Assembly (NCBI RefSeq): GCF_963921235.1
Contig: NC_086097.1
Coordinates: 156,738,001-156,802,000, forward strand
Source of the DNA: Mobula hypostoma
Lineage: Eukaryota
DNA length: 64,000 nucleotides
Reading direction: 5' to 3'
Part shown: positions 12,996 through 63,628 of the stretch, one piece after another
How positions within the stretch are numbered: the stretch's first letter is position 1
Layout: each line of letters begins with the position of its first letter
Position numbers and translations under genes: made by a program
The notes under the pieces: model-generated
What the model was told of the DNA's origin: nothing
Databases searched by the model: none
What the model saw: only the letters and a program-made list of their open reading frames with translations

Positions 12996-14160
12996 TTAAT
13001 TGGTTTATTATAGCCACATGTACTGAGATACAGTAAAAAAGTTTATTCTGGAGGACACCTGGACTGATCATTCCATACTTGAGTGTATCAAGATAGTACG
13101 AATGGAAAAATAATAACAGAAGGCTGAATATAGCAATAAAGTTGCAGAGAAAGTGTAATGCATGTGGACGATAAGTGGCAAGGCACATGAAGTGGTGACT
13201 AAGTGATCAAAAGTTCACCTTTACTGTACAAGAGATCTATTTAAAAGTCTTATTACAGTCTGATACAAGCTGGCCTTAAGCCTTCTGGTGAACGCAGCAG
13301 GCCAGGCAGCATCTCTAGGTGGAGGTGCAGTCGACGTTTCAGGCCGAGACCCTTCAAAGTCCTGACGAAGGCTCTCGGCCTGAAACGTCGACTGTACCTT
13401 CCCCTGAGATGCTGCCTGGCCTGCTGCGTTCACCAACAACTTTGATGTCTGTTGCTTGAATTTCCAGCATCTGCAGAATTCCTGTTGCTTAAGCCTTCTG
13501 GTATGTGTTTGCAATCTTTTGTATCTTCTGCCCGACAGATGGAGGAGGAATGGTAATGACTGTGGTGGGTATGTTCTTTGATTGTATCAAAGTCAATGGA
13601 AAGTCAGGTGTACTTGTGATAGACTGGGCTATGTTCATAATATCTGAACTTTCATACAATTTTAGGCAGAGGCATTGTCATAGCAAGCTGTGATACGTCT
13701 GGATAGGATACTTTCTATGGACATTTGTAAAGATTGGTGAAAATCTTTGGGGACCTGCCAAATTTCCTGTGCCTCCTGAGTACTGGTGTGATTCTTGGCT
13801 ATTTTATCTATATGGTTGGATCAGGACAATTTATTGGCAATACTTACACCTAGGAACTCTAAGTTCTCAACCTCTCTACCTCAGCACCATTAATACAGGC
13901 AAGGATGTGTACACATCCTTGTTTCCTGAAGTCAATCACTAGCTCTTTTATTGACATTAAGAGAGAGGTTGTTGTATTGACAATATGCCACTAGATTTCC
14001 TATCTCTTTTGTAAACACTTTGTCATTGTTTGAGATCCAGCTCACTACAATGCTATCATCTTCACACTTGTTAATAGATTTAGAGCAGAATCTGTCCTTA
14101 CAGCCATGAGTTTAGGGAACAAGTAGACAAGCAAGCAACCTTTTGGAGTTCCACTGCAAG
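12996..14160 (-). mobile_element. Degenerate Rex1/Babar-like LINE 3' part
   Basis: Colinear by eye with the 885-1930 remnant. Confidence 0.6.
13285..13487. mobile_element. Penelope-derived inverted-arm mini-insertion with hammerhead motif (13358-13393, +)
   Basis: Inverted arms; TSD CTTAAGCCTTCTGGT at 13275-13289 and 13488-13502. Confidence 0.88.
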
Positions 14161-15129
14161 TTTACTGTGAGAAATATGGGGATTCTCTGAGGTTTCCTGG
14201 AAGTAGCCAGCACTTTTTCGTAGTCTTCTTTGAATATTTTCTGCAATTTCTTTGAAAGTTCCCTAGTGGTTTCCATGATATTGACTGAAAATTCCCTGTT
14301 TGCCTAAAGGTTCCCGAAAATTCTCTGCAAGCCCATTTGGAGTTTCCTTGGAGTTTTCTTCTGATGTTTACTGGCAAATACTTAGAAGTTCCCAGGGTAT
14401 ACATTGAAAATTGCTGAGAAATTCTCTGAAGGTTCTCAAAAGTTCCCTGAAGGCTTACTAGATGTTCTTTGGGGATCTGCTGGAAATTTCCTGAAAAGTT
14501 CTTTGGAGGCTCTGTGATGGTTTACAGAATTTTTTTTTGAAGGCTCTGTAAATATCCATGAAGGCTTCTGAAAATACACAACAAGGTCTTTATAAGTTCT
14601 TGAGTGGTTAGCCAGGGTTCATTTGAAGGTTCTCTTGACATTCATTGGTAGATACCTGGAGGTTTTCTGGTACTTTCAATATGTTTTCTGAATGACCTTT
14701 TGTGATTTATACAATGTTTTCATGAGGTCTTTGGAAATTTTCCATAGCAATTTTTTAAAAGTACCATAGATGTTCTTTCAAGAAAGTTCCTGGTTAAGGA
14801 TTCTCTGATAAATTTCTTGAGGCTCTCTGACAGCTCTTTGGAAGCTCCATTGAGGTTTCATGGAGATAGATCCTGAACATTTTCTGGAAGTTTTATGGCA
14901 GCAAACCTTTAAATTGAAATTAATATGGACTTTATAAATCTCAAAGTATGACTTTCACAGCAATCAGCTCAGAATTTTCAACAGACTGCAAAACCTTTGG
15001 AAATTTCCATAGTAATCCCAATAAATGACCTTTGAGAGCCCTTTTTAATGGGCAATAAAGAGTGAAACAAATTGTTACTAGTCTGGAGTCACAGATTGAT
15101 GCAATCCCTAAGAAGATGTGCTGGCATGG

Positions 15130-15720
15130 ATATTTTCTTGGAGATTTGAGGAGATTTGGTATGTCTCTAAATATTCTTAAACTTAAACAGACGTAATTTT
15201 GAAAATATTCTGACGGGTTTCATCATGGCCTGGTATGCAATTCCAACTGCAGGACACTGCAGAGTGATGGACACAACACAGTACATCATTGGGTCCATCT
15301 CTCCCCAGCATCACAAGTACCTACAATACATTAAGAAGGCATTATCCCTACCATCCAGTTCTTGCCATTTTCTCATTGCTACAGTCAGGCAGGAGATACA
15401 GAAGCCTGAAGGCCTGCACCACCAGGAAGAGCTACTTTCTTATAGCTGTCAGATTCTTGCACTAACCTGTACAGCCGAACCCTTCTTCAGCAATGGAATA
15501 CTACAGACCACCTATTGCACTACATTGAATGGGTCTCAGATTTTTTACACTGTTATTTTGCACAGTCATTTTTTTATCTCCTCTGTCTTGTATATAATTT
15601 GTATAATTTAACCTACATTCTGTTTTGTCTGATTCTACATTCCAGCCATGCTCCTGCAAGCAAGTTTTTCATTGTACACATACCTCACATGACAATGAAC
15701 TTGACTTGATTTGACTTGAC
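15130..15720 (+). mobile_element. Degenerate Rex1/Babar-like 3' end with (ACTTG)n tail
   Basis: ILTGFIMAWY-like translation; tail at 15699-15720. Confidence 0.6.
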
Positions 15721-15925
15721 CAGCCTGAATAAACCTGCAGATCTCCTCTCCTAAATGACGTTAATGAAACAAAAGAATCCTTATGGCCAGTTGGTATTTG
15801 TGTGATTGCCATCTTCCAAACTACTCCTTGGCTGGAATAGTATTCAAAATTAGGCTTCTTGATTATTTGTACAACTTTCTTCTGTATTGTAGTCCCAGAT
15901 TACCAATATTTCTTCTCGTACTACC

Positions 15926-16599
15926 TTAAATAAAGCGTGTGCGGCCACTTCGGTGGTGATGTCTGTTATCTGTCAAGTAGGGGACCATGCACAATCCTGA
16001 TTTGATGGAGACAGACGTGAGAGTATGGAGGAACATCTGGAGAAACTTCTGAAATGCCCGCTTCACTGTCGCTGCTACTGTGTGGTAATCGGAATCTCCG
16101 GAGCAGAAGGCCCCGAAATCCTTGGCTTTGCGTGTTTCAGCGGCCGGGGCGAGGTCGAAGGTGCTCGGTAGAGGATGGCGCTCAGGAGGCTGTATCGGAG
16201 AGGCTGGTCGGAAGCTCAAAGTTTTCGGACGGATGGACTCTGTGTTGGCTGTGGTCGGTTGTTTCCAAGGCATCGGCAAGTTGACGGTACCTGGAGGTTT
16301 ATGGCAGGGAGTTTCTCCCTTTTGCCGCCTGCTATTGGGGACTCGGAAGTCGATCGACTCGGGGACTTTTGAGACTTTATTTACTGTGCCCATGGTTTGT
16401 TCTTCATCAAATGATGGTATTGCTTTGCACTGCTCTAACTATATGTTATAATTATGTGGTTCTGTCAGTGTTAGTCTTTGGTTTGTCCTGTTTTCTGTGA
16501 TATCGCTCTGGAGAAACATTGTAGCATTTCTTAATGCATGTATGCATTTCTAAATGACAATAAAAGAGGACTGAGTGTTCTCATAATCTCAAAAAAAAA
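15926..16599 (+). mobile_element. CpG-rich retroposed segment, probably a LINE 3'UTR or non-autonomous element; family unassigned
   Basis: Abrupt GC/CpG rise; ends in ATGACAATAAAA...CATAATCTC-A9, resembling the ATGACAATAAAA before the tail at 26682. Confidence 0.5.
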
Positions 16600-17029: not shown

Positions 17030-18035
17030 TCTGCACTCAGCCCATCTTCCTGCCGCCTTAACAGTGATAGAGTTCCTCTTGTCCTTACCTACCACCCCAT
17101 GAGCTTCCATATCTAACACATCATTCTCCTCAACTTCCACTATCTTCATGGGATCCTGCCACCAAACACCATCTTCATCAATCCCTCTGCTCCATCACCC
17201 TCTGCTTTCCTTATGGAACGCTCCCTCTGTCATTCGCTTGTCTATTCATCCTTCCCCAGTAATCTCCCTGCTGGCACATATCCCTACAAGTGATAGAAAT
17301 GCTGCAACTTCCTTCTCCATCCCCTCCATTCAGGGCCCTCAATACTTCATATCTGAATATGTTGGGATCGTCTATTATATCCAGTGCTCCCAGTGCAGCC
17401 TCCTCTACACTGGTGAGACGCGTCATAATTTAGGAGACTGCTTTGTCAAGAATCTCCAGTTCATCCACCAGAGTGGAATTTTCACAGGGGGCAGCCATTT
17501 TAATTCCTCTCCCCATTCCTATTCTGACATGTCAGTCCATGGCCTCCGCTTTTTGCCATGATGAGGCCACTCTCAGGACAGAGCAGCAACTTCTTATATT
17601 CTGTCTAGGTAGCCTCCCACTTGACGGCATGAACATCAATTACTCCTTCTGTGTTTTTTTCCCTCATTTTTTTCTTTCTCAGATTTTTTGGTTTGATTTT
17701 CCTTTCCCCTTCCCTCTTCTTCTATTCCAAATTCTAGCCTCTTACATCTTCTCCTCACTTGCCGATCACCTCTCCTGATGCCCTTCCTCCCTTTTCTTCC
17801 TTGGTTTACTTTCCTCTCCTATCATATTCCTTCTTTTCCAACCCTTTACCTTTCCCACCCACCTGGTTTCACCTATCACCTTCTAGCTGGCTATCCTTCC
17901 CCTCGCCCTGCATTTTTGTTACAGTGTTTTCCCCTTTCCTTTCCAGTCCTGATGAAAGATTGTGGCCCAAAACGTTTATTCATTTCCATAGATGTTGTCT
18001 GACATGGTGAATTCCTCAGCATTTTGTGTGTGCTG
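17030..18035 (+). mobile_element. Degenerate Penelope-like element 3' part (GIY-YIG, pyrimidine tract, 3' repeat with decayed hammerhead)
   Basis: DRVPLVLTYHP at 17066; IVYYIQCSQCSLLYTGETRHNLGDCF; CAGTCCTGATGA...CCCAAAACGTT at 17944-17976; 3' end homologous to the arms of the mini-insertions. Confidence 0.85.
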
Positions 18036-18857
18036 TTCTGAAAGATCCTATGATGTTATTTTGAAGAGAAACAGAAGAATTATCTTCAGCCCTCTGACCA
18101 AAAATATTTATTCCTTAATTAACACCAGTAAAACAGATCATTTATCCATCTCATTTCATTGTTGATTAGTATTTTAGGAGAATATATTTCCCTGCAATTC
18201 ACCCACTCACTGTTTTAAATATTTCCATTGCTCTTTTATCATTTATTGTCAAAATTTTCTTTTCTTTTTCTGCTTCTACTCCAATGCCCTGAAAATTAGT
18301 TCTTTGCATGTTGGTTGTTTGTCGCTTTTTATTTTTGAGTAGTTTTTTATTGATTCTACTGTGAATGCCTGCATGAAAATGCATCTTAAGGTCATATATG
18401 GTGACATCTGTGGTATGTACTTGGATAATAAATTTACTTTGAACCTTTGACGTTGACTTGCATTTGTCTTTCCCTGTCATTTTCAGTGTACTAGGCGGTC
18501 TGATTTGTTCACCTTTATGTGCTCTCTTTCATGTCCCATTTATCCAGCAGTTATACTATTTTATACAGTATGTGCTGGATAATAAAGTATCAGTAATGAT
18601 TTAATGCACAGTATAATATTCATTCCCAGATCATATTCCCTATCAGTTGTAGTTACCATGGAAGGTAGTTGATAACTGTTATCTATTATTTGAAAATCTG
18701 TACTCATTACATAGATTTGTCTTCATCTTTTTCTTCCATGTATTTTCCACAATTAAGTAGTATGCAAAATGCCGTGTTGAAATCATTGATTCTTTTTGAC
18801 CCCTTCCCCTTATACATGCTTTTTAATATTTTGATCATAAAGGTACAATAACAACAC

Positions 18858-20659: not shown

Positions 20660-20780
20660 CGCGAGACTGCAATGCTGGAAATCAGGAGTAACACACAAAA
20701 ACGCTGGAGGAATTTGACAGATCAGGCAGCATCTGTTGAGTGAAGTGAACAGTCGATGATTTAGGCTGAGAATCTTCATT
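20660..20780 (-). mobile_element. Old single-arm Penelope 3'-end insertion
   Basis: GCTGGAAATC...ACACAAAAACGCTGGAGGAA...CAGGCAGCATCT...CAGTCGATG, homologous to the younger arms. Confidence 0.65.
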
Positions 20781-21439: not shown

Positions 21440-21750
21440 TACAATAGACTGCTTGCATTTCTTCCAGTATATTGCATGCAATGTGGGATATGGGGCCTCC
21501 TCGGCACTAGATGAACCAAACATAGATTAGGAGCTCATTTTCTGAAGCACCTGCACTGAATCTGGAGGATTAGCCCTGAACGTCCAATTGCGACCGTTTT
21601 CATTCAGCATCTGGTTCCCACTCTGACCCCTTTGTTGGTGACCTCTAGCACTGATACAATGAGTCCCAGTGTTAGTTTAGGAAACAACCCCTCTGGTATT
21701 TGGGCAGGTTGAAACCTGAAGGACTCAATAATGAATTCTCCAACTTCTGA
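21440..21750 (+). mobile_element. Old Penelope GIY-YIG fragment
   Basis: YCMQC..GLL...TKHRLGAHFLKHL and GLNNEFSNF-like end, colinear with 17360-17650. Confidence 0.55.
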
Positions 21751-22631: not shown

Positions 22632-24500
22632 GAATCAGAATCAGGTTTAATATCACCAGAGAAAAACACACTAAATGCTGGAGGAACTCAGCAGGCTATG
22701 AAGCATCTATGGAAAAGAGTACAGTCAACGTTTCAGGCTGAGAGAGTCTTGCCAAAGGGTCTCAGTCTGAAACGTCGACTGTTTGCTCTTTTCCATAGAT
22801 GCTGCCTGGCCTGCTGAGTTCCTCCAGCATTTTGTGTGTGTGTTGCTTGGATTTCTGGCATCTGCAGATTTTCTCTTATTTTTAATATCACCGGCATATG
22901 TCATGAAATTTGCTAATTTAGTGCAGCAGTACAATGAAATACATGATAATATAGAAAAATAAATAAGTAAATTACAATAAGTGCATATGTATATTAAAGA
23001 GTTAAGATAAAAATAGTAGTGCAAAAACAGAAATAAATTTTAAAAAGTGAAGTATTGTCCATTGTGCCACTGTCCATTTAGAAATCAGATGGCAGAAGGG
23101 AAGAAGCTGTTTCTGAATCACTGAGTGTGTGCCATCAGGCTTCTGTACCACCTACCCGATGGGAACAATGAGCGTCCTTAATAATGGATGCTGCCTTTCT
23201 GAGGCACCGCTTAGCTTTTTTCGATTTTGTGCAGTAGCAACCCCCCCCATACCAAACAGTGATGCAGCCTGAATGAATGCTCTCTGTAGTTTTCAAGTGT
23301 TTTAAGTATCAAAACTAAATCTCCTCAAACTTCTGATGAAATATAGCTGCTGTCTTGCCTTATTTATAGCTGCATTGATATGTTGGGACCAGGTTAGGTC
23401 CTCAGAGATATTGTCGCCAAGGAACTTGAAATTGCTCACTCTCTCCATTTCTAATCCCTTTATGAGTATAGGTTTGTGATTCCTCATTTGACCCTTCCTA
23501 AAGTCCACAATCAGCTCTTTGGTCTTACTGAAGCTGAGTGCAAGGTTGTTGCCACAACACTACACAACTAGCTGGTATATCGCACTCCTGTACACCCTCC
23601 CTGCTCCATCTGAAATTCTACCAACAATGGTTGTATCATCTGCAAATTTATAGATGACATTTGAGCTATACCTAGCCACACCGTCATGGGTAAAGGGAGA
23701 GTAGAGCAGTGGGCTAAGCACACACCCCTGAGGTGCACCAGTGTTGGTCATCAGCAAGGAGGAGATGCTATTACCAATTCACACAGATTGTGGTCTTCCG
23801 GTTAGGAAGTCAAAGATCCATTTGTAGGGGGAGGTACAGAGTCCCCGGTTCTGTGGCTTTTTAATCAGGACTGTAGGAATGATGGTGTTACGTACTGAGC
23901 TATAGTTAATGGACAGGTTCCTGACATAAGTGTCTGTATTGTCCAGGCAATCTAAAGCCCTGTGAAGAGTCATTGAGATTGTATCTGCCATAGACCTAGT
24001 TGCTGTCTTTGTTGCTATGAGGCAGGAATTGATTCTAGCCATAACCAGTCTCTCAAAGCATTTCATCACCATAGATGTGAGTGTAACTAGACGGTAGTCA
24101 TTAAGGCAGCTCACACTACTACTCCTATTAGAAATTGATATAATTGTTGCCCTTTTGAAGCAGGTGAGAATTTTTGATCTTAGCAGTGAAAGATTGAAAA
24201 TGTCTTTGAATACACGCACCAATTGGTTTGAACAAGGTTTCAGAGCCTTACCAGGTACTCCACCAGGGCCTGCCGCCTTGCAAGGGTTCAATCTCCTGAA
24301 AGAAAGCGTAACATCAGCTTCTGAGACAGAGGTCAAAGGGTCACTGGGTGCAGAAGGGAACCTCAGAGCTGTAGTTGTATTCTCCTTTTCAAATCAAGTA
24401 CACAGTAAAAGGCTTTGAACTCATCTGGTAGTGAAGCACCACTGCCATTCATGGTGTTGGGTTTTGCTTTATAGAAAGTAATGTCCTTCATACCCAGACA
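22632..24500 (-). mobile_element. Rex1/Babar-like LINE RT fragment with (CTGATT)n tail
   Basis: KAAGPGG, LNDYRLVTLTSMVMKCFERLV, TGAPQGCVLSPLLY, KFADDTTIVG; frameshifted. Confidence 0.85.
22658..22880. mobile_element. Penelope-derived inverted-arm mini-insertion (GGAGGAACTCAGC subfamily)
   Basis: TSD TTTAATATCACC at 22646-22657 and 22881-22892. Confidence 0.85.
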
Positions 24501-25119
24501 TATATTAATCTCTCTTTTTGAACTAAGTAAATGACTGAGCCTCCACAGACTCAAGGATAAAAGTTTTCCAAACATTCACTACCTGAAATGTGCGAACAAT
24601 TCTCCTCGTCTCCTGGTAAGACATTGTTTCTGAATACCCATAATCATGAAACTATGGTCCATGGTTCTAGACTCTTCAGTCAGAGGAAGCAACATCCCTG
24701 CACCTACTCTGTTCAGACCTGTCAGAATTTTATAGCTGTCAATGAGGTTGATACAATAACAAATTATTAAGGTTCATGATACGCTGGCCTTTATTGTAAC
24801 AAGATATGAGTACAATGGATAAAATCCCATTCCCAAATCAAATGGATCCAGAGAATGTATACAGTATACAACCTGAAATTCTTACTCTTTGCAGACACCC
24901 ATGAAAAACAGAACCCAAACACAATGAATGATAGAAAAATGTTAGAACCCCAAAACCGCCTCTCCCCCTTCCCACAAGCAAGCATCAACGCATTGAACTC
25001 CCCTCCCCACATTTGTTTCAGCAAATTGCGTCAGTGGCCACACCCACCAAGCAATAGCAAAGCATCCAAAGAGCAACCATGATCTGTAGTCAACAAAAAC
25101 TATTGTTTACCCAACTGTA

Positions 25120-25333
25120 AGCACGAGGAATTCTGCAGATGCTGGAAATTCAAGTAACACACATCAAAGTTGCTGGTGAATGCAGCAGGCCAGGCAGCAT
25201 CTCTAGGAAGAGGTACAGTCGATGTTTCGGGCCGAGACCCTGACGAAGGGTCTCAGCCTGAAACGTTGACTGTACCATTTCCTAGAGATGCTGCCTGGCC
25301 TGCTGCATTCACCAGCAACTTTGATGTGTGTTG
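25120..25333. mobile_element. Penelope-derived inverted-arm mini-insertion
   Basis: TSD TTGTTTACCCAACTGTA at 25103-25119 and 25331-25347. Confidence 0.9.
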
Positions 25334-25349
25334 TTTACCCAACTGTATT

Positions 25350-28875: not shown

Positions 28876-31290
28876 GTTGGTACTGGACCCCAGGATAGGG
28901 AGTTTGTAGAGTGACTACGGGATGCATTTTTGGAGCAGCTTGTATGAGAGCCGACCAGGGATAAGGCTATTCTGGATTTAGTGTTGAGCAATGAACAGGA
29001 TTTGATAAGTGATCTTGAAGTAAAGGAGCCATTAGGAGGTAGTGACCATAATATGACAAGTTTTTATCTGCAAGTTGAGAGGGATAAGGGCAGATCAGAA
29101 GTGTTAGTATTGCAGTTGAACAAAGGAGACTATGGAGCCATGAGGGAGGAGCTGGCCAAAGTTGACTGGTTGGATATCCTAGCAGAAAAGACAGTGGAAC
29201 AGCAATGGCAGGTATTCTTGGGAATAATGCACAAGGTGCAGAATCAATTCATCCCCCGGAGAAGGAAGGATTCAAAGGGGGGGAAAGTGGCCACAAAGGA
29301 AGTCAGAGATAGCATAGCATTAAAAAAGAAGTATAACAGAGCTAAGGTGAGTGGGAAGACGGATGATTGGGAAATTTTTAAGGAGCAACAGAACTTAACT
29401 AAAAAGGCAATACGGGGAGAAAAAATGAGGTATGAACGCAAGCTAGCTAGGAATATAAAGGAGGATAGCAAAAGTTTTTTTAGGTATGTGAAGAGAAGGA
29501 AGATAGTTAAGAACAATGCTGGGCCCTTGAAGAATGAATTGGGAGAAATTGTTATGGGAAACAGAGAAATGGCAGACGAATTTAATAAGTATTTTGAATC
29601 TGTCTTCACTAGGGAAGACACAAGCAATCTCCCAGATGTATGGATGGGCCAAGGACATAGGGTAACAGAGGAACTGAAACGGATTGACATTAGGAAGGAA
29701 ACGGTGATGAGTAGACTGATGGGACTGAAGGCTAACAAATCCCCAGGTCCAGATGATCTGCATCCTAGGGTACTAAAGGAGGTGGCTCTGGAAATTGCGG
29801 ATGCATTGGTGATCATTTTCCAATGTTCCTTAGATTCAGGATCAGTTCCTGAGGATTGGCGAATGGCTAATGTTATCCCACTTTTTAAGAAAGGAGGGAG
29901 GGAGAAAACAGAGAACTTTCGCCCTGTTAGCCTAATATCAGTAGTGGGGAAGATGCTAGAGTCCATTATTAAAGATGAAATAGTGGCATATCTTGATAGC
30001 AGTGATAAGATTGGGCCGAGCCAGCATGGATTTACCAAGGGCAAATCATGCTTGACTAATCTATTGGAGTTTTTCGAGGATGTAACCAGGACGATAGACG
30101 CGGGAGATCCAGTGGATGTGGTGTACCTTGACTTTCAGAAGGCATTTGATAAGGTACCACATAGGAGATCGGTGGGTAAAATCAGAGCTCATGGCATTGG
30201 GGGGAGGATATTGACATGGATAGAAAACTGGTTGGCAGATAGAAAGCAAAGGGTAGCAGTGAATGGGTGTTTCTCAGAATGACAGGTGGTGACTAGTGGG
30301 GTGCCACAGCTGTTTACGATTTACGTCAATGATTTAGAGGAAGGCATTGTGAATAACATCAGCAAGTTTGCTGATGATACTAAGCTGGGTGGCAGTGTGA
30401 CATGTGATGAGGATGTTAGGAGAAATCAAGGTGACTTGGATAGGCTGGGTGAGTGGGCAGAAACTTGGCAGATGGCATTTAATGTGAATAAGTGTGAGGT
30501 TATTCACTTTGGGAGCAAGAACAGGAAGGCAGATTATCATCTGAAAGGTGTGGAGTTAGGTAAGGGAGAAATACAAAGAGATCTAGGAGTACTTGTTCAT
30601 CAGTCTCTGAAGGTGAATGAGCGAGTGTAGCAGGCAGTGAAGAAGGCTAATGGAATGTTGGCCTTTATTACAAAGGGAATTGAGTACAAAAGCAAGGAAA
30701 TCCTTTTGCATTTGTACAGGGCCCTGGTGAGACCACACCTGGAGTATTGTGTGCAGATTTGGTCTCCAGGGTTAAGGAAGGGCATCCTGGCTGTGGAGGA
30801 GGTGCAGCGTAGGTTCACTAGGTTATTTCCTGGGATGTCCGGACTGTCTTACACAGAGAGGTTAGAGAGACTGGGCTTGTACACGCTGGAATTAAGGAGA
30901 TTGAAGGGGGATCTGATTGAGACATATAAGATTATTAAAGGATTGGACAAGATAGAGGCAGGAAATGCGTTCCAGATGCTGGGAGAGTCCAGTACCGGAG
31001 GGTATGGTTTAAGAATAAGGGGTAGGTCATTTAGGACAGAGTTGAGGAGGAACTTCTTCTCCCAGAGAGTTGTGGAGGTGTGGAATGTGCTGCCTCAGAA
31101 GGCAGTGGAGGCCAATTCTCTGGATGCTTTCAAGAAGGAGCTAGATAGGTATCTTATGGATAGGGGAATCAAGGGTTATGGGGACAAGGCAGGAACCGGG
31201 TATTGATAGTAGATGATCAGCCATGATCTCAGAATGGCGGTGCAGGCTCGAAGGGCCGAATGGTCTACTTCTGCACCTATTGTCTATTGT
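28876..31290 (+). mobile_element. 5'-truncated CR1 LINE, second subfamily
   Basis: LGGSDHN, KSPGPDD, YLDFQKAFD, FADD; in-frame stops; (CTATTGT)n tail; TSD CAAATTG at 28869-28875 and 31291-31297. Confidence 0.95.
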
Positions 31291-42622: not shown

Positions 42623-42661
42623 TTAACAACATCAGCAAACTTGATTCCCCTACCCCACTCA

Positions 42662-50691: not shown

Positions 50692-51530
50692 TTAAGATGT
50701 TTGCTGGCCTGGGCTAGCATCAGTGGCATCAGCAGTTGGTCTGCTACCTGCCCTCAGGGGAAGGAGAGATAAGGAACAATGGAGCAGCGTCTGGAGATGT
50801 GTAATGAAGGGACGGGGGAGAGAGAGCTGTCTGGAGCGGCTCCCCCCTTTGAACCCTGAACTGTTTGAAGTGATGGACAGGCGATACCCCAGCAGGGGGA
50901 TAAAAAGGGACAGGTTCGCTAAGACAGGGACACACGCCACCCGAGGTAACGAGACCCTGGAAGCGGTGCGCCTCTCACGAGTGGGTGAGAAGCATCAGAC
51001 AACGGCCAGGGTGGAAAGGTACGATCAGCGGGAACCCGGTGTGTGTCCGCCCTTGCCTGGGTGCCGGGTTCACTGCAGAGGATCGACCGCATCTGGAGGA
51101 GGGGTCACAGTCGGTGACCTCAGGTGACATCACCAAGGACCCGCCCAAAAGCTGTTTGTGAGCCATCTCGCTGGTCTGTGAGTGAAGCCGTGTTCTGAAT
51201 GATCAGTTGTTCCTATTCTATGTCTCTCTTCCCCCACCTTGTCCATCGCCATGGCAACGATTACTGCGAACTGAACTACTAACTGGACTGAACTTTGAGT
51301 CATTTTGAAATTGGTCATTTACCCCTAGACAACGATAGAGCTTGATTGATGCTGTTATCTTAATTCTGTGCACATGTGCGTTTATCATCGCTGAACTGTT
51401 GCATTTATTATCCTTTCGATTAATGTGTTGCTTGTTTCTTTAATAAAACTTTCTTAGTTCTAGTACTCCAGACTCCAACTGAGTGATCCATTTCTGCTGG
51501 TTTGGCAACCCAGTTACGGGGTACGTAACA
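50692..51530 (+). repeat. 5' LTR, lacking the first 22 bp
   Basis: Matches 54710-55547 with about 7 differences seen by eye; ends CGTAACA. Confidence 0.95.
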
Positions 51531-51534
51531 TAAG

Positions 51535-51560
51535 TGGGGTTCTCGTCCGCGATTTTGAAC
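51535..51560 (+). promoter_or_regulatory. Primer-binding site, imperfect tRNA-Pro complement
   Basis: TGGGGTTCTCGTCCGCGATTTTGAAC versus the canonical TGGGGGCTCGTCCGGGAT. Confidence 0.75.
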
Positions 51561-51629
51561 GCTAAATTTGGGACGGAGTAAATTGATTGGGTTAAAATTC
51601 CCGAAAGAAAGAAAAGACAAACAGCAGAA

Positions 51630-54032
51630 ATGGAGGTTGAGGAATTTATAAAGGCGCCGACCTTGGAGGCATTAGAGGATGCCAGGAAATCGGAATTGAT
51701 AGCTGTGGCCAAACGGGTGAATCGTGCTAAGGTGAAGTCGACAATGAGGAGAGAGGAGATACACAGAGCTATTGTAGAGCACTATGTATCTAAAGGTGTG
51801 TTTCCCCAAGGTGAGCTGGGGGAGGTGTCTATTGAAAAACCTGCTGGAGACGCGGTACAGGTACAGCTTGAAAAACTGAGACTCGAGCACGAGTTCCGGG
51901 TACGGCAGTTAGAACACGAAGAGAAAGAGAGAGAGTTAGAAAGGCGGGAGAGAGAGAAAGAGTTAGAAAGGCGGGAGAAAGAGAGAGAGTTAGAAAGGCG
52001 GGAGAAAGAGAAAGAGGTAGAAAGGCAAGAGAGAGAAAGACAGTTGGAGAGAGAGGAGAAACAGAGGGAAAGGGAATTTGAGCTGGAGAAGTTAAAGATA
52101 AGGGCCGAGCAGGGGCTCGTGCCGAACCAAGGTGGAGGGTTCCGGGCGACCCAGGAGGTTAGGCTGGTTCCCCCATTTGACGATACCAATGTGGATCGGT
52201 ACTTTCTCCATTTCGAAAAGGTGGCTATAAGTCAGGACTGGCCGAGGGATAAGTGGGTTGTTTTACTTCAGAGTGTACTGAAAGGGAAGGCCCAAGAAGC
52301 TTACTCAGCTTTGTCCGCGGAAGATGCCCAGAAGTATGAGGTGGTGAAAGAGGCCATCCTCAGGATTTATGAGTTGGTCCCGGAGGCATACCGGCAGAGG
52401 TTCCGGAATGCGAGGAAGCGGTGGGACCGCACGTATTTGGAGTTTGCTCGTGAGATGCAAACATATTGTGAGCGTTGGTGCGCCTCTAAGGGGGTAGAGG
52501 GGGATTATGACAGACTGCTACAACTGATTCTGATTGAGCAGTTTAAAGGTTGTGTCCCTGAGGGTATGAGACCCTACCTCGATGAGAAAGAGGCAGCCAC
52601 GTTAGCCGCAACTGCTAAGTTAGCGGATGAGTATGCGTTGACGCATAAAATGAAGTTTGCCCCGAGTAAAGGCTACCAGAAGGGTAGTCAGGACGGCGGG
52701 GAGAGTCCGCCGGAAAAGTCAGAAAGTAAGCCGGGGACTAGTGAAAAGGATAAGGTAGACCGGGAGCAGTCTGGTAGGAAGTCTCCTGGGGTCGTCTGTT
52801 ATAATTGTGGGAAAGTCGGACACTTTGCGTCCAGGTGCTTTGCCCCAAGGAAGGAGACGGGGAAAGGAAAAGCGGAAATTTTGAATGGCTGTATCGAGCT
52901 GTTAAGCGAACCGCTAGGGAAGGACAGGTCTGAAAAAGTCCAGGAAGGGCGCGAGAGGTTTATCTCGGCTGGACTGGTGTCAGTGAAAAAGAGGTTAAAA
53001 CCAGTTCCAGTGCGGATCTGGAGAGACACGGGAGCGTGTCAGTCACTAATACTGAAGAGTGTATTAGAGTTTAGCTCAGAGACCCAGACTAGGGAGGTAG
53101 AGGTCAAAGGTGTTGGGGAAGGGACAGAGTCAGTCCCTTTGCACCAGATACATTTACAGAGCAACCTGGTCTCTGGACTAGTCACGATCGGGGTGAGGTC
53201 CGAATTACCGATGAAAGACGTGGAAGTCTTGCTCGGTAATGACATCGCCGGAGGAATCGTGTTCCCAGTCGTGAGATTGACGGGTCAGCCTGCCAGCATG
53301 GAGGCCCCGCCCGCGATGGTGAATTTGGCTGAAACATTTCTGCCAACCTTGTATGAGACAGGGTGTAGTGAGATAAGAGGTAGTGAGGGAGCTGGGACGG
53401 ACGTAGCAGTAGCCAGGAAAGAATTTGTGCAGACGCAGGAGCGAGACGAAGGGCTGATGGTTTTTGCCGAGACCGCTCTCTCTGACACAGCCTTGACAAG
53501 CTATTGTGCGGATGAGGAAGTGCTAAGGAAGAAAGGGAAATCAAGTACAGCATCCGCCGACGAGGAGTGGGGGGTGGTGCAAAAGAGTTATGGGGATGAG
53601 GTTTTTAAAATGGCCCACGAGGTACCCCCCGGTGGACATCTTGCGGTGCTGGAGGAAACAGTTGGTGGAATCATGAAAGAGATTTACCGGCTGCCCAGGG
53701 GGAAGAATGTTATTGATCATGACCGACGCGAACTGAGACGGTCACCGGCTTTTGATATGCTAACAAACCTAGTCGGTGTTAGCGTGGAAATCAATGAAGC
53801 TAGGGGCCCCTTGATAAGAGGAAAAAACCATTTTGAAAAGATTAGGATGGGATCGGTCAGATGGGAGAAGGCTATTGTTTTGGCCAGGTCTACTGATAAG
53901 GTCTCTCCCTTAATCCCCGAACAAAGCGAATCTTTAGAAGGAGTAATTAAACGACTCGCACCTATGTGTTTGATTGTCCCGAGGAAATGCAAAGAACTGG
54001 GACGTTGGGTTATGTCTGTTACAATAGGGTAG
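51630..54032 (+). CDS. Gag (E/R coiled coil, SCAN domain, CCHC knuckle), aspartic protease and vestigial pol
   Basis: 800 aa; PEAYRQRFR...LILIEQF...ADEY (SCAN), CYNCGKVGHFASRC, RDTGA, AHEVPPGGH (first half of the integrase HHCC). Confidence 0.88.
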   Translation: MEVEEFIKAPTLEALEDARKSELIAVAKRVNRAKVKSTMRREEIHRAIVEHYVSKGVFPQGELGEVSIEKPAGDAVQVQLEKLRLEHEFRVRQLEHEEKERELERREREKELERREKERELERREKEKEVERQERERQLEREEKQREREFELEKLKIRAEQGLVPNQGGGFRATQEVRLVPPFDDTNVDRYFLHFEKVAISQDWPRDKWVVLLQSVLKGKAQEAYSALSAEDAQKYEVVKEAILRIYELVPEAYRQRFRNARKRWDRTYLEFAREMQTYCERWCASKGVEGDYDRLLQLILIEQFKGCVPEGMRPYLDEKEAATLAATAKLADEYALTHKMKFAPSKGYQKGSQDGGESPPEKSESKPGTSEKDKVDREQSGRKSPGVVCYNCGKVGHFASRCFAPRKETGKGKAEILNGCIELLSEPLGKDRSEKVQEGRERFISAGLVSVKKRLKPVPVRIWRDTGACQSLILKSVLEFSSETQTREVEVKGVGEGTESVPLHQIHLQSNLVSGLVTIGVRSELPMKDVEVLLGNDIAGGIVFPVVRLTGQPASMEAPPAMVNLAETFLPTLYETGCSEIRGSEGAGTDVAVARKEFVQTQERDEGLMVFAETALSDTALTSYCADEEVLRKKGKSSTASADEEWGVVQKSYGDEVFKMAHEVPPGGHLAVLEETVGGIMKEIYRLPRGKNVIDHDRRELRRSPAFDMLTNLVGVSVEINEARGPLIRGKNHFEKIRMGSVRWEKAIVLARSTDKVSPLIPEQSESLEGVIKRLAPMCLIVPRKCKELGRWVMSVTIG
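51933..52040 (+). repeat. Four 27-bp coding tandem repeats (ELERREREK-like)
   Basis: GAGTTAGAAAGGCGGGAGA... unit repeated. Confidence 0.85.
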
Positions 54033-54567
54033 CCCAGTAAAGAACACTCATATATATTGAGTAATTCAGTGACTAAAGGGCTGATGACCACAGAGGTGTG
54101 TATTGGCAATTTAATACGGCTGTCTGAAGCCAGTTTGATAGTGAACCTTGAAAAAAATGAATTCGGCCACACGAGGGTCACCTACCTGGGAATTGTGGTG
54201 ACACAGGGGCAGCTGGCAGTGATGCAAGCTGCAGTGCAGGCTATCGCTGACCTCCCAACCCCGACAGACAAGAGAGCCCTCAGAAGGCTCTTGGAGATGG
54301 TGGGGTACTGCAGGAAGTTTTGCAATAACTCTGCGGTCAATACCCGTCCCCCTCCTACTAAGCCCTTGCGAAAGAAAATTGAGTCGGAATGGGACGACCC
54401 TTGTTGTTGTGGTCCGGGACAAAACCAAATGAGAGGTTACATTGGTCGCAATTCATCAGTGTTTTTGGCCACTATGAAGTTTGCTGAGTTGGAGCCTGGT
54501 CTAAGGGATTATTAATAACACGTGTAAAAGGAACAGAAAATGTGATGACTGTCTGTCAAGGTGTTGA
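54033..54567 (+). pseudogene. RT and RNase H remnants
   Basis: LIVNLEKNEFGHTRVTYLG, PTPTDKRALRRLLEMVGYCRKF, VKGTENV..DCLSR; no YxDD. Confidence 0.8.
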
Positions 54568-54675
54568 CAGCTTCAAATTCTCTGTATTAGCTAAATAACT
54601 GTTAAAGATGTATATTGTGTATGTATCAGATAATGTAGTCATGTTTGTAATTTTTACCTCCCGGTAAAAATCCTT

Positions 54676-54687
54676 AAAGGGGGGAAG
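54676..54687 (+). promoter_or_regulatory. Polypurine tract
   Basis: AAAGGGGGGAAG directly before the TG of the 3' LTR. Confidence 0.88.
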
Positions 54688-55547
54688 TGTGACGAGAATA
54701 CACATAAAATTAAGATGTTTGCTGGCCTGGGCTAGCATCAGTGGCATCAGCAGTTGGTCTGCTACCTGCCCTCAGGGGAAGGAGAGATAAGGAACAATGG
54801 AGCAGCGTCTGGAGATGTGTAATGAAGGGATGTGGGAGAGAGAGCTGTCTGGAGCGGCTCCCCCCTTTGAACCCTGAACTGTTTGAAGTGATGGACAGGC
54901 GATACCCCAGCAGGGGATAAAAAGGGACAGGTTCGCTAAGACAGGGACACACGCCACCCGAGGTAACGAGACCCTGGAAGCGGTGCGCCTCTCACGAGTG
55001 GGTGAGAAGCATCAGACAACGACAAGGGTGGAAAGGTACGATCAGCGGGAACCCGGTGTGTGTCCGCCCTTGCCTGGGTGCCGGGTTCACTGCAGAGGAT
55101 CGACCACATCTGGAGGAGGGGTCACAGTCGGTGACCTCAGGTGACATCACCAAGGACCCGCCCAAAAGCTGTTTGTGAGCCATCCCGCTGGTCTGTGAGT
55201 GAAGCCGTGTTCTGAATGATCAGTTGTTCCTATTCTATGTCTCTCTTCCCCCACCTTGTCCATCGCCATGGCAACGATTACTGCGAACTGAACTACTAAC
55301 TGGACTGAACTTTGAGTCATTTTGAAATTGGTCATTTACCCCTAGACAACGATAGAGCTTGATTGATGCTGTTATCTTAATTCTGTGCACATGTGCGTTT
55401 ATCATCGCTGAACTGTTGCATTTATTATCCTTTCGATTAATGTGTTGCTTGTTTCTTTAATAAAACTTTCTTAGTTCTAGTACTCCAGACTCCAACTGAG
55501 TGATCCATTTCTGCTGGTTTGGCAACCCAGTTACGGGGTACGTAACA
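54688..55547 (+). repeat. 3' LTR, 860 bp
   Basis: TGTGACG...CGTAACA termini. Confidence 0.96.
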
Positions 55548-56044
55548 AAAACTACTAGTATTTCTTTTTATATGCCACAGTTTAATGCTGATCCATGAAA
55601 TGGCAGAGAGATGAAAATCTATAGCCCCTTATATGACAGCTCATAAAGTTCTTGCAAACAGCACCATAGACTGTAAACAATGAGTCACAAGTGCTAGCAT
55701 TAACACTGGTGTGGACACCAGAGAGTTATCTGTGAATAAATAAGTGATAATAGCCATTTCCCAACTGTTGTTTATATATATATATATATATATATCTGAA
55801 GTAGATGCTATTACAATCTGGTGATTGTCATGAATAGTGCTCTGAAACTTCTAGGGTAAGTTCAATAATCACAAATGTGTGACGGTTACTAGGTTTTGAT
55901 GAATTGCAGTTGGGAGGAGGTATATGGGGAGGATAAACATTGATATGTGATATACCAGATGAACTGAAAGCCTTCTTTAATTTCTATGTAATTGCATAAA
56001 AAAGTTTCTTAAGCTTGTCAGAGCCAGGGAGTTGTGTGGGTGGG

Positions 56045-58555: not shown

Positions 58556-59778
58556 TAACTGGTGTTCTGCAGGGGTCGGTGTTGGGACCACTTCTTTTTA
58601 TGCTGTATATAAATAATTCATATGATAGAACACGCAAACACGAAGAATTCTGCAGATGCTGGAAATTCAAGCAACACACATCAAAATTGCTGGTGAACGC
58701 AGCAGGCCAGGCAGCATCTCTAGGAAGAGGTACAGCTTACGTTTCGGGCCGAGACCCTTCATCCCGACAAAGAGTCTCGGCCGGAAACGTCAACTGTACC
58801 TCTTCCTAGTGATGCTGCCTGGCCTGCTGCATTCACCAGCAACTTTGATGTGTGTTATTATATGATAGAATAGATGGCTTTGTTGTCAAGTTTGCAGTTG
58901 ATATGAAGATTAATGGAGTGGTAGGTAGTGTTGAGGAAACAGGTAGGATGCAGAAGGACTTAGACAGATTAGGAGAATGAGCAAGAGAATGGAAAATAAA
59001 ATACAACGTTGGAAAATGCATGGTCATGCACTTTGGTAGTAGAAACAAATGTGCAGTCTATTTTCTAAATGAGGAGAAAATCCAGGAATCTGAGATGCAG
59101 AGGGACTTAGGCATCCTTGTGCAGAACACTCTGAAGGTTAGTCAGTGGTGAAGAAGGCAAATATCATTTCAGCATTCATTTCAAGTGGTCTAGAATACAA
59201 CAGCAAGGATGTGATTCTGAGGCTTTATAAGGCCTCACCTTGAGTATTGTGAACAGTTTTGGGCCCCTCATCTTAATAAAGATGTGCTGGCATTGGAGAT
59301 AGTTCAGAGGAGGTTCACAAGGATAATTCCAGGAATGAACGGGTTACCATACGAGGAACGCTTGATGGCTCCGGGTCTGTACTCGCTCGAATTCAGAAGG
59401 ATGAGGGAGAATCTCATTGAAACCTTTCAAATGTTGAAAGGCGAAGGATGTTTCCCGTGGTAGGAGAGTCTACGGCAAGAGGGCACAGCCTCAGGATAGA
59501 GGGGCACCTTTTCAAAACAGAGATGCAGAGAAATGTCTTTAGCCAAAGGGTGGTGAATTTGTGGAATTTGTTGCCATATGCAGCTCTGGAGGCCAGGTTG
59601 TTGTATTTAAGGTAGATATTGATAGGTTCTTGATTGGCCATGGCATCAAAGGTTACGGGGAGAAGTCCGGGAACTGGAGTTGAGGAGGAGTAAGCAAAAA
59701 AGGATCAGCCATGATTGAATGGCGAAGCAGACTTGATGGGCCAGATGGCCTAATTCTGCTCCTATGTCTTGTGGTCTT
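58556..59778 (+). mobile_element. Degenerate CR1 RT and 3' end
   Basis: GVLQGSVLGPLLFMLYIN, KCMVMHFG, CR1 3'UTR. Confidence 0.85.
58631..58857. mobile_element. Penelope-derived inverted-arm mini-insertion inside CR1 RT
   Basis: TSD ATATGATAGAA at 58620-58630 and 58860-58870. Confidence 0.88.
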
Positions 59779-60009: not shown

Positions 60010-61567
60010 CTGAGAAGTGACTTAGATACACTCAAATTTGCGTAACAGAGCAACAGGTGCCATTTCATTGGCTATTCACTCAACGCTGGAAAATCTGGAG
60101 AGCAAAGGTGCATACATCAGGATGCTCTTTATCAATTATAGCTCTTCATTCAATACACCCCATCAAAACTAATCAATAAGCTGCTAGGCATTGGCTTCAA
60201 TGCATCCTTGGGCAATTGGATCCTTGATTTTCTCACTTGCAGACCCCAGTCAGTTCAGTTCGGCAACAATATCTCCTCCACAATCTCCATCAGCACAGAT
60301 GCACCACAAGGCCGTGTGCTTAGCGCTTGCTCTGCTCACATTACACTTATGACTGTGTGCCTAAGCATAGCCCCAGTGCCTTATAAATCAATATATACTG
60401 TAGGAGGAAGATTAAAAATCTGGCTGATTGGTGCTATAACAACAATATCTTACTCAATGTAAGCAAGACCAAAGAGCTGATTATTGACGTCAGTAGAGGA
60501 AATAAACCAGAGGTCATAAGCCAGTCCTCATGGGGGGATTAAAGGTGGAGAGGGTCAGCATCTCTAAATTCCTCAGTGTTATTATTTCAGAGGACCTTTC
60601 TGAACCCAGCTCGTAAGTGCAATTAGGAAGAAAGCACAGCAGCACCTCTACTTCCTTACAAATTTTCAAAGATTCAGCATGACATCTAAAACTTTGACAA
60701 ACTTCTGTGGATGCGTAGTGGAGAGTGTATTGACTGGCTGCTTCACAGCCTGGTATGGAAACATCAAATTCCTTGAACAGAATATCCTACACAAAGTAAT
60801 GGATACAGACAAGTCCATCATGGGTAAAGCCCTCCTCAGCATTGAGCACATCTACATGAAACACTGTTGCAGAAAGGAAGCACCCATCTTCAGCGACCCT
60901 CACCATACAGGACACGCTCACGTCTCACTGCTGCCATCAGAAAGAAGGTACAGGAGTCTCAGGACTCACACCACTAGGTTTAAGAATAGCTCCTACTCCT
61001 CAACCATCAGGCTCTGGAACTAAAGTTGATAATATTACTCAAGCAACACACATCAAAGTTGCTGGTGAACGCAGCAGGCCAGGCAGCATCTCTAGGAAGA
61101 GGTACAGTCGACATTTCGGGCCGAGACCCTTCAACAGGAGGGTCCTGACGAAGGGTCTCAGCCCGAAACGTCGACTGTACCTCCCTAGAGATGCTGCCTG
61201 GCCTGCTGTGTTCATCAGCAACTTTGATGTGTGGTGCTTGAATTTCCAGCATCTGCAGAATTCCTCGTATTTACGTTTTTAATATCACTCAACTTCACTT
61301 GTCCAATTACTGAACTATTCCCACAACCTATGGACACATTTTCAAGGATTCTTCATCTCATGTACTTGATACTTATTGCTTATTTCTTTCTTTTTGTATT
61401 TGCACAGTATGTTATTGTTTTTCACACTGGTTGAAAGTTGGTGTGGTTTTTCAATGAATCTGTAAGTTTTTTTTTATGGATTTAATGAGTATGCCCACAA
61501 GAAAATGAATCATGGGGTTGTATATGGTGACATACATGTACTTTGATAATAAATTTACTTTGAACTT
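60010..61567 (+). mobile_element. Degenerate Rex1/Babar-like LINE
   Basis: [35 protein letters not shown]; ends TTTACTTTGAACTT like 18430. Confidence 0.8.
61040..61279. mobile_element. Penelope-derived inverted-arm mini-insertion with hammerhead motif (61142-61175, +)
   Basis: TSD TAATATYACTCAA at 61030-61042 and 61280-61292, one mismatch. Confidence 0.88.
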
Positions 61568-61645
61568 CGTTTAAATTCATGTTACCTGCAATTTATTTTT
61601 CAACTGGTGTTGATACAGAAGGAAAAAAAATCACCTGCAATGTCC

Positions 61646-61742
61646 CAATATACATCAAAGTTGCTGGTGAACGCAGCAGGCCAAGCAGCATCTATAGGAA
61701 GAGGTGCAGTCGACGTTTCAGGCCGAGACCCTTCGTCAGGAC
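61646..61742 (-). mobile_element. Single-arm Penelope 3'-end insertion with intact hammerhead motif (61709-61742)
   Basis: TSD ACCTGCAATGTCC at 61633-61645 and 61741-61753. Confidence 0.88.
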
Positions 61743-62017
61743 CTGCAATGTCCATTTACTTTGCTTCTGTGTTTCTTCAAAAGTAAAGTTAAATTGTAAA
61801 GATGTAGAATGCAGGTCAACATTTTCATTGCAACTGTCATTGCCAATATTGAAATAACTAAAGTAACTGGGCCCAGAACACATGCTCTCTTATGACTCAA
61901 ACATATTGTATTTGCTTGGGCAAAAGGAGAACAGTATGGCCCCTGTCACACACACACTTTCCTGAATTCAGGACAGGAGACTTATTTTTATACAGCTTTG
62001 GCTTGTCAGTTATAGAT

Positions 62018-62175
62018 ATTCAAGCAAGACACATAAAGTGCTGGTGGAACGTAGCAGACCAGACAGCATCCATAGGAAGAAACACAGTCGACGTTTCGGG
62101 CCGAGACCCTGCGTTCCACCAGAATTTTGTGTGTGTTGCTTGAATTTCCAGCATCTGCAGATTTCCTCGTGTTTG
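62018..62175. mobile_element. Penelope-derived asymmetric inverted-arm mini-insertion
   Basis: TSD AGTTATRGATATT at 62008-62020 and 62176-62188, one mismatch. Confidence 0.82.
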
Positions 62176-63628
62176 AGTTATGGATATTGGCCATTTGGTA
62201 AATGGTATATGTTTGAATTCCTTACTTGCAGGATCAATCACCATTCACAATGGAGATATTAAACATCAATAAAAACAAGGTGAAAACAGATGACACTTTG
62301 AAGTTAGCAAAGTAATTGTCCCTTAGTTATTGAGTGTATTTCACATCCTTGCATTATTGCCATCTCATCTGCCTCTGCACCCCACAGAATTCTAAGGGGA
62401 AGCTCTGAGGATTGATGACACACTGCCACAGTCCTTCTCACATCTCTCCCTGCTGTAAGCAGATTTGGCTCTGCTGGTTTCTCTTGTCTGGGTTCAACTA
62501 CACACCATCACAGCATTTTCACCAGGTCTTTAACCCTTGCCTTACTGCAAGTTCCTTAACATCAATATTAAGTAATCCAACTTGAATATTTCTTTATAAA
62601 TATATTGCTGAGAGGAAGAAATAAAGAATTGGTGGGAGGAGAGAAGCATTGTCATTGAATTCTATTCTTAAATTTTACAGAGTCAAGCAAATTCAGAGCA
62701 TAAAATATCCCCTTTTTAATGCAAGAGATGATGATTAAAGTTATTATTAACACAATTGACATACTTGAATCTAAGGAATTTATTGTTTTTAGTATAATTG
62801 TGAACGGTAGAGTTCATTGATATGAATATTGAATTGGCACAGTCCAACTTGTCTACAGCATATATGAATATGAACATTAGTCTTGAGTTTACAATAAAGG
62901 GGAGGCAATTGATGTGTTGTTTAGAAAGATCTGTCCAGTTAGATACCCTCTCTTGGTCCTTCCAGATCTCCTTGTAATTTTTTTACTTTTTAAGAATTTA
63001 TCCAATACTCTTTTGGAAGCTAGTGTAGAATGTATTTCAACCATTCCTTCAATCCTTGCATACAACCCATAACATGAAATATATCCCAACAATTCTCCTC
63101 AGATTTGTTTGACAAATATCTTTAATCTACTTCGTCTGGTTACGGTGGAAGAGACTTTGTTCTTCTTCACTTTATTGTACTTATTAATTTTGAAAACATT
63201 GATGAAATCTCTCCTTAGCCTTGTAAGATAGGGATAGGTCATGAACAAAAAAAACAGCGGCAACCAGTGTTTTATGACTAATACCAAGAGTTTTTTATGT
63301 ACTAATTATAATCATAATTGATGGTAGTTCTCAGACAAATCTTAAGAATGTGTGAATCATGCTTAGCCAAATCATTCAATCCTCAGACAAAGGCCATTCA
63401 ATCATTGGTCCATTTGATTTAATTGCTTCAGTTGTAAAATATACCCTTGCCATTTAAGACCCCCTGAGTCTAACAATTAACAGCTCATGTTAGTTCAGCC
63501 ATTGCTTACTTTTATTTCCCTCGTGTAGATCATTCACATCTATTCTTCTTCCTGTAGATCTCCAGCATTACACATAATTCCATTTTTCCTTCAACTATTA
63601 ATAAAGAAAAAAGTCCTTATCACAGTTC

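Follow-up and report, generated by a model that had tools for sequence, protein, structure and literature searches.

Paired inverted inserts of probable Penelope terminal-repeat origin in the genome of the ray Mobula hypostoma

A 64,000-nucleotide stretch of the Mobula hypostoma genome (contig NC_086097.1, positions 156,738,001 to 156,802,000; below, the window, with positions counted from its first letter) contains ten short inserts of one family and two old copies. In eight of the ten, two inverted arms of unequal length meet at their 5′ ends. The family is real and abundant. Sequence comparison supports an origin of the arms from the tip of the pseudo-long terminal repeat (pLTR) of a GIY-YIG Penelope-like element (PLE), and supports a minimal type I hammerhead in them with putative self-cleavage. 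The reading that we favour, with some reserve, is that the inserts are terminal-repeat copies lacking an open reading frame (ORF), and that they arose from two run-off cDNAs, primed from both nicked target strands and started internally on uncleaved autonomous RNA.

Inserts and target sites

The inserts were recovered by BLAST with the first insert and by an inverted-repeat scan of the window. All ten places named in an earlier reading of the DNA letters (the sequence-only reading) were found again, and mapping of the arms bore out its description of eight of them as unequal arms lying head to head; the other two (42663-42794 and 61646-61742) are single arms. The inserts are 97-245 bp long and occur about once per 5-6 kb. 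Both old copies that had been suspected were detected as well, at 20661-20779 by BLAST (E 3e-4) and at 40808-40929 by an arm profile (E 1e-9) whose training set did not contain that copy. Profile matches to the Penelope-like relic described below and to the 20660 copy were not counted, being circular, as both were in the training set. The 12 copies total 2179 bp, or 3.4% of the window. Window density and summed contig depth extrapolate to 10^5-10^6 copies per genome, depth not being equal to copy number. In the following list, arm positions (in brackets) are numbered from the A of AGTCC as position 1, and TSD denotes a target-site duplication.

13275-13502: insert 1 with TSDs (copies 13275-13289 and 13488-13502); body 13285-13487; short arm on the minus strand, 13285-13355 (consensus 10-80); long arm on the plus strand, 13358-13487 (1-132), with an intact minimal hammerhead at 13362.
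22646-22894: insert 2 with TSDs (14 bp, one mismatch); body 22660-22880; subfamily B; short arm, minus, 22660-22743 (16 to about 95); long arm, plus, 22745-22880 (1-134); it lies in a different repeat, paralogues of which have the site unoccupied.
25103-25347: insert 3; body 25120-25333; 17-bp TSD; long arm, minus, 25120-25241 (12-134); short arm, plus, 25239-25333 (4-98).
31983-32233: insert 4 with TSDs (12-14 bp); body 31994-32222; long arm, minus, 31994-32126 (2-134); short arm, plus, 32131-32222 (1-92), with an intact hammerhead at 32135.
34825-35063: insert 5 with TSDs (13 bp) within a CR1-like ORF; body 34838-35052; subfamily A′; short arm, minus, 34838-34933 (1-95), with an intact hammerhead; long arm, plus, 34932-35052 (about 8-125).
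42663-42794: insert 6; subfamily B; one long arm, minus (1-134); no adjacent TSD.
58620-58870: insert 7 with TSDs (11-13 bp) within a CR1-like reverse transcriptase (RT) frame; body 58632-58858; long arm, minus, 58632-58760 (about 7-138); short arm, plus, 58762-58856 (about 5-97).
61030-61292: insert 8 with TSDs (13 bp, one mismatch); body 61039-61279; short arm, minus, 61039-61139 (3-103); long arm, plus, 61142-61279 (2-141), with an intact hammerhead at 61145.
61633-61753: insert 9; subfamily A′; one short arm, minus, 61646-61742 (2-98), with a perfect 13-bp TSD and an intact hammerhead.
62008-62188: insert 10 with TSDs (13 bp, one mismatch); body 62018-62175; subfamily C; short arm, minus, 62018-62110 (13-105); long arm, plus, 62109-62175 (68-134).
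20661-20779: old copy, a single long arm on the minus strand; a TSD was looked for and not found.
40808-40929: old two-armed copy; a piece of the tail, inverted (about 40808-40836), abuts a plus-strand short arm (40837-40929).

TSDs of 11-17 bp flank nine of the ten inserts, as had been claimed; only the arm at 42663 has none. When the 34838 and 58632 inserts are cut out together with one TSD copy, the CR1-like reading frames become open again, and the target is present once in each of two paralogues of the repeat that hosts the 22660 insert. The direct repeats at these three sites are therefore true TSDs. The TSDs are 68% AT, compared with 59% for the window. Around the TSD-less arm (42663-42794) there is a 9-nt inverted match (42631-42639 with 42794-42802) and an 11-nt direct match (42620 with 42808).

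Anatomy of the arms

The ten inserts provide 18 arms, nine long and nine short; their 3′ ends were adjusted by hand by a few nucleotides where arm and TSD overlap. The 5′ starts lie at positions 1-16 in 17 arms and at 68 in one. No arm starts upstream of position 1 and none at position 33. The 3′ ends are bimodal: the nine long arms end at 125-141, while eight short arms end at 92-105 and one at 80 (medians 134 and 97, 37 nt apart). Clustering of eight of nine short-arm ends at 92-105 has P = 1.5e-5 against uniform truncation. Every pair (8/8) combines one long arm with one short arm (P = 0.004 if the arm types were chosen independently). Single arms include both types, and the short-only insert 61646-61742 has its own perfect 13-bp TSD. 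Short-arm ends often have 1-5 nt in common with the TSD.

The junctions between the arms all differ (8/8 pairs), none being common to two copies. Four arm subfamilies can be distinguished, and within each of the eight pairs the sister arms are of one subfamily. Sister arms diverge by 3.5-14%; in the young group the value is 6.5% for sisters and 8.9% for non-sisters. As sisters diverge about as much as non-sisters, the copies are neither homogenised nor brand new. None of the ten inserts reaches upstream of the hammerhead, so that neither an ORF nor upstream PLE sequence lies between the arms.

Hammerhead motif

Positions 1-36 of the arm match a minimal type I hammerhead. Stem I would be formed by 1-4 with 33-36, followed by CUGANGA and one extra base, stem II by 13-16 with 21-24, followed by GAAA and the palindrome ACGU, with the cut predicted after position 32. 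The complete minimal-hammerhead descriptor is matched by five of the 18 arms, where 0.1 would be expected (60 Markov controls), and the stem positions are paired in 91.6% of cells compared with 13-62% when the stems are slid. The sequence-only reading had put a hammerhead core in the arms. That stands for the arms with the full motif; the remaining arms are truncated or mutated. A central role for cleavage is not borne out, since none of the 18 arms starts at the cleavage product (position 33).

Several searches gave no further support. An Rfam scan at E ≤ 10 returned 15 matches with no hammerhead family among them, the best scores being sub-threshold microRNA (miRNA) hairpins. Excess conservation of core bases was not seen in the young arms (4/92 changes in the core, 28/826 downstream), a comparison of low power. 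Two-sided compensatory change was found in none of eight stem base pairs, again with low power, as the copies are close and have decayed after insertion. Single arms fold no better than shuffled sequences (z −0.2 to 1.4), and folding of the alignment missed the hammerhead, yielding instead an 8-bp helix (columns 53-60 with 112-119) in which no pair had changed on both sides. Full two-armed hairpins are predicted to fold into a near-perfect stem (−152 to −196 kcal/mol). Such a stem would bury the ribozyme and the start sites, and two-armed copies are therefore likely dead ends, whether as cis or trans templates. An energy estimate for a double-hammerhead dimer was set aside, that dimer being less stable than an alternative dimer fold.

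Both subfamily-B arms (22745-22760 and 42780-42794) have an A6C change in the hammerhead core. The A6C hammerhead is a natural variant favouring Mn2+ (PMC7151607).

Penelope origin

The arms can be compared with a relic in the window.

17030-18040, plus strand: 5′-truncated Penelope-like relic with broken GIY-YIG frames (17316-17646), a pyrimidine-rich 3′ region and a terminal arm (17946-18040) with a degenerate hammerhead.

With 72 residues of the relic GIY-YIG domain, phmmer gave 92 matches at E ≤ 0.001. The best (2e-13) was protein P0002 of the stingray Hypanus sabinus, which in turn matches the window at 17316-17646 (tblastn, E 1e-25). Eight of the matches were looked up: six come from stingray, skate and whale shark; the other two are proteins of 816-827 residues with RT and endonuclease (P0013 and P0072). 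The Pfam GIY-YIG match of the relic is weak (E 0.16), and a word-seeded protein search with a piece of the relic gave no match. RT sequence was not found in the relic; full-length P0013 and P0072 match only the endonuclease region of the window (tblastn). P0002 has a Cys cluster ahead of the endonuclease, of which the relic keeps a decayed trace. A Cys-rich linker between RT and endonuclease is a trait of the Neptune clade (PMC3846280), and the cluster in the best match suggests a Neptune-type PLE.

These matches support the assignment of the arms to the pLTR tip of a GIY-YIG PLE. The sequence-only reading had matched the arms to the 3′ end of the relic. The Penelope origin holds, with direct BLAST matches of the relic arm limited to the arms at 22781 (83%) and 42794 (75%). 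Between it and the young arms, about 35 of 94 aligned columns are different; the relic is thus a relative, and most inserts had another parent.

Another GIY-YIG Penelope-like relic, older than the first, lies at 21455-21735 on the plus strand (tblastn, E 7e-8); downstream of it the arm profile gave no match to a terminal arm. At the arm boundary of the first relic (17925-17950), a pyrimidine tract and CAG lie upstream, resembling a 3′ splice site; the boundary likewise fits the initiator-type consensus, which is YYANWYY. In Drosophila virilis, the 3′ boundary of the intron is the 5′ end of helix I (PMC4209133); the transcription start is 46 nt ahead of this 75-nt intron (PMC2377424).

Evidence from other sequence sets

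One long arm (that of insert 4, within window 31985-32131) was compared with runs X10 (guessed to be RNA) and X15 (DNA); X15 may share its source with the window DNA and would then not be independent. In X15, 60,365 contigs align to the arm. Their loose ends are concentrated at the tail end (31993/4, 389 + 279 contigs, with unrelated AT-rich flanks) and at the 5′ end (32125/6, 294 + 902 contigs). Since homology in the reference also stops at this 5′ end, the accumulation there is by itself no proof of a boundary. In X10, loose ends also cluster at the short end (position 32030, 25 contigs). Among the 27 X15 joints examined of 95 listed, 12 have one side at 32126-32130 and five lie at 32093-32096, beside the cleavage site. 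Two X15 contigs join long-end and short-end positions (31991/32030) on opposite strands, a possible tail-to-tail junction.

Variants of the A>G/T>C type are enriched in X10 relative to X15 (median ratio 2.7, n = 12; 6/12 above 1.5), with a ratio of 0.12 for C>T/G>A (n = 21), and the A>G/T>C site of highest frequency has a UAG context. The comparison used 40 of 48 rows and contig depths from different samples, with the RNA status of X10 guessed. We take it as a hint of adenosine-to-inosine (A-to-I) editing of arm RNA. Lizard Penelope is reported to be heavily edited (PMC5625713).

The gene model of a Mobula birostris coenzyme A synthase (P0094) starts with a translation of a young arm (87% identity). 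This beginning of the model would reflect exonisation or misannotation, and it points to the presence of the subfamily in manta rays. Protein searches with translated arms for upstream contexts gave one match and then none. Loci with the arm pattern elsewhere (viral contigs, 4 and 0; metagenomes, 0 and 66; prokaryote genomes, 0) were rejected as chance, with at most 28 nt matched in the 70 loci.

Proposed mechanism

We propose that the RT-endonuclease of the PLE would nick the two strands of the target at points about 13 bp from each other, which would leave 3′ overhangs. One nick would prime at a distal site on the RNA (134-138) and the other at a proximal site (about 97), both being internal. 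Synthesis of the two cDNAs would pass the uncleaved hammerhead and end close to position 1, at the foot of stem I. Joining of their 3′ ends head to head with small trims would then give the order TSD, short inverted arm, long tailed arm, TSD, and a failed priming would leave a single-arm insert. The template would most likely be the 5′ pLTR end of the autonomous transcript, so that the arms would be run-off or ‘strong-stop’ copies. Position 1 might be set by a transcription start, by a splice acceptor or by arrest at stem I; if the autonomous mRNA starts there, its 5′ pLTR would yield run-off arms without a separate family. Most hairpins would not form a self-propagating lineage; they would be dead-end by-products left by one autonomous subfamily after another.

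Priming of reverse transcription from both nicked strands, which the sequence-only reading had proposed, is supported because the junctions differ in all eight pairs, the short-only insert has its own TSD, the arm starts exclude fold-back (below) and a lizard PLE provides a precedent; the step in vivo we infer. With the lizard enzyme in vitro, both strands are nicked and then extended, and two internal RT starts bound a tail of about 34 nt (PMC11167929). Its start sites lie 85-119 nt from AUG, compared with 91-131 in the ray arms. The same reading had placed priming on RNA 3′ ends. That part is not supported, as the arm ends cluster at two sites in the pattern of internal RT starts described in PMC11167929. 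Hammerhead mutants of the lizard RNA still insert, and cleavage is dispensable there (PMC11167929).

A number of observations weigh against this scheme. The consensus of the loose ends at 32126 is a pyrimidine-rich, PLE-like sequence (agreement 0.41), and by a mixture estimate roughly a quarter of the 32126 contigs run into longer PLE copies, so across the genome the 5′ boundary has exceptions. The 5/27 joints near the cut, which are confounded by a private mismatch at 32095, suggest that cleavage may have affected some templates. The strict long-plus-short rule is not explained by the data in PMC11167929, because in vitro the lizard enzyme used the start sites alike on both strands. None of the 18 arms extends upstream into 3′ untranslated sequence, and a dedicated mini-RNA predicts likewise. 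The relic belongs to a different subfamily, and the window holds no parent of the young arms with an identical pLTR. The sample is ten inserts.

Alternative explanations

The strongest competitor keeps the chemistry of two nicks and internal priming and changes the template, which would be a short non-coding RNA from solo arms or mini-elements, mobilised in trans; the inserts would then be an inverted, dispersed counterpart of the non-long-terminal-repeat (non-LTR) retrozymes. Apart from its internal priming sites, it corresponds to the view of the sequence-only reading, whose separate non-coding system mobilised in trans is not demonstrated by the data. We lean against it while treating it as a serious possibility. 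The lack of upstream PLE sequence in all 18 window arms fits such an RNA, as do the density of copies and the four arm subfamilies, which differ from the local relic. In Adineta, pLTRs suffice for trans mobilisation (PMC3846280), and non-autonomous PLE derivatives are known (PMC8557442; bioRxiv 10.64898/2026.07.22.740005). A lineage of this kind is, however, at odds with the absence of any inherited junction, with the burial of the hammerhead and start sites in the two-armed stem and with hammerhead cores that decay at the background rate. ARAGORN detected no Pol III/tRNA head, and in X15 part of the family continues into PLE-like upstream sequence. We rate run-off from the autonomous mRNA somewhat above the trans-mobilised mini-RNA; no test here separates the two. 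A tRNA-derived short interspersed element was rejected on the ARAGORN result (0 genes), degenerate A and B boxes not having been searched.

A single cDNA could also account for two arms, if a palindromic master RNA was copied once and truncated at its 5′ side, or if a long-arm cDNA folded back, the centres being deleted later. Sister arms of one subfamily in all pairs would follow, the bases that short-arm ends share with the TSD agree with it and, by sequence inspection, the insert 10 junction could derive by deletion from a junction of the insert 3 type. A palindromic RNA nevertheless predicts scattered ends and inherited junctions, against the clustered short-arm ends and the junctions that differ in every pair. 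Fold-back would make the short arm a copy of the long cDNA, and such a copy could not begin further upstream than its template. In inserts 3, 5, 7 and 10, however, the start of the short arm lies upstream of that of the long arm, as it does by 1 nt in insert 4. The short-only insert, which has a full TSD, also speaks against a single cDNA. We consider a single cDNA improbable.

A miniature inverted-repeat transposable element (MITE), that is, a DNA transposon derivative, with captured PLE sequence would likewise be small, palindromic, dispersed and TSD-flanked, but is very hard to reconcile with unequal and variable termini, TSDs of 11-17 bp, single-arm copies and junctions that all differ; the fixed termini and fixed TSD length that the sequence-only reading had named as speaking for a MITE were not found, as both vary.

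A further reading is speculative and rather doubtful. In it, an RT-endonuclease dimer would make two copies of a single RNA (or would copy two RNAs paired through the ACGU palindrome of the hammerhead), with one subunit fixed to each start site and nick, and so enforce long and short arms of the same subfamily. The uncleaved hammerhead would serve as the 5′ boundary or as the dimer handle. A short trans-mobilised RNA would thus have spread near-perfect hairpins through ray genomes, in numbers estimated at 10^5-10^6, and these would be a main source of A-to-I-edited double-stranded RNA (dsRNA). The long-plus-short pairing rule, the uncleaved-ribozyme boundary and the hint of editing are the parts worth pursuing.

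Significance

How PLEs make inverted, tailed insertions is listed as an open question (PMC8557442), and the sole in vitro study ends before second-strand synthesis and joining (PMC11167929). The ORF-less hairpins would be the simplest products of the PLE insertion reaction and look very numerous in rays. They are easily misfiled as MITEs or, given the Rfam scores above, as miRNA precursors, and they may form a large pool of edited dsRNA.

Other elements were seen in the window. A LINE-like element lies at 2117-7531 on the plus strand (a first frame of 306 residues and an endonuclease/RT stretch of 1152 residues). An LTR-type element at 50692-55550 has 842-bp direct repeats that are 99% alike and a gag-like frame of 816 residues. 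CR1-like LINE copies lie at 10230-12564, 29414-31287 and 36269-38654, two of the three being 94.8% alike; insert 5 lies in the CR1-like first ORF upstream of the 36269-38654 copy.

Comparison with known systems

An inverted 5′-truncated copy with a tail of 30-40 bp at one end is the typical PLE unit (PMC8557442, Fig. 2; PMC3846280, Pen2a_Av; PMC2377424, Fig. 1C). The ray inserts resemble this canonical unit of endonuclease-bearing PLEs in that an inverted 5′-truncated copy abuts a direct copy, the TSD encloses the whole unit and the tail is one-ended (37 nt, compared with 31 in Pen2a). They differ from it in having no ORF or second pLTR between the arms, in TSD length (11-17 bp, compared with 8-10 bp in Adineta), in their very high density and in the strict combination of long and short arms (8/8).

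The Poseidon element of Anolis carolinensis (PAc) has, like the ray arms, a hammerhead at the repeat start, two RT starts about 55-105 nt past the cut, uncleaved RNA as template and AT-leaning targets (PMC11167929). The ray element is probably of a different clade, given the Neptune-type Cys linker in its best match. A word search of the text of PMC11167929 gave no discussion of inverted pLTR-only inserts or of TSDs.

The predicted motif agrees with the metazoan PLE type I hammerheads of PMC4209133 in CUGANGA, the extra base before stem II, G10.1-C11.1, GAAA and ACGU for stem III. Most of those are dispersed as truncated PLEs, and Schistosoma has opposite-strand pairs 100-700 bp apart (PMC4209133). 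In contrast to such pairs, the ray motifs abut head to head, and their activity is a prediction. No elasmobranch example was seen in the available text of PMC4209133.

Both arms of a ray pair cover the same sequence to the same 5′ boundary. This is unlike L1 twin priming, in which both nicks prime reverse transcription on adjacent, non-overlapping RNA segments, leaving an inverted 5′ part within one TSD pair.

In the literature searched, no description of ORF-less PLE hairpins in sharks or rays was found, with Dfam, Repbase, most subscription papers and supplements outside the search. The available text of a 2026 ray genome preprint (10.64898/2026.10.27.761883) has no match for ‘Penelope’ or ‘PLE’.

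Non-LTR retrozymes share with the ray inserts a non-coding, pLTR-related sequence, a type I hammerhead and dependence on a PLE enzyme, and one chondrichthyan genome carries them (bioRxiv 10.64898/2026.07.22.740005). They are head-to-tail tandems with a ribozyme in each unit, whereas the ray inserts are dispersed, inverted and TSD-flanked; the window holds no head-to-tail hammerhead array. Monomers ending at the cleavage site, a retrozyme trait, have no counterpart in the 18 arms and a possible one in the 5/27 X15 joints near the cut. The tandem-based screen described for retrozymes would miss the ray inserts. These are a minimal, ORF-less variant of the published PLE insertion pattern and not a new element class, and their mechanism is largely anticipated by published biochemistry.

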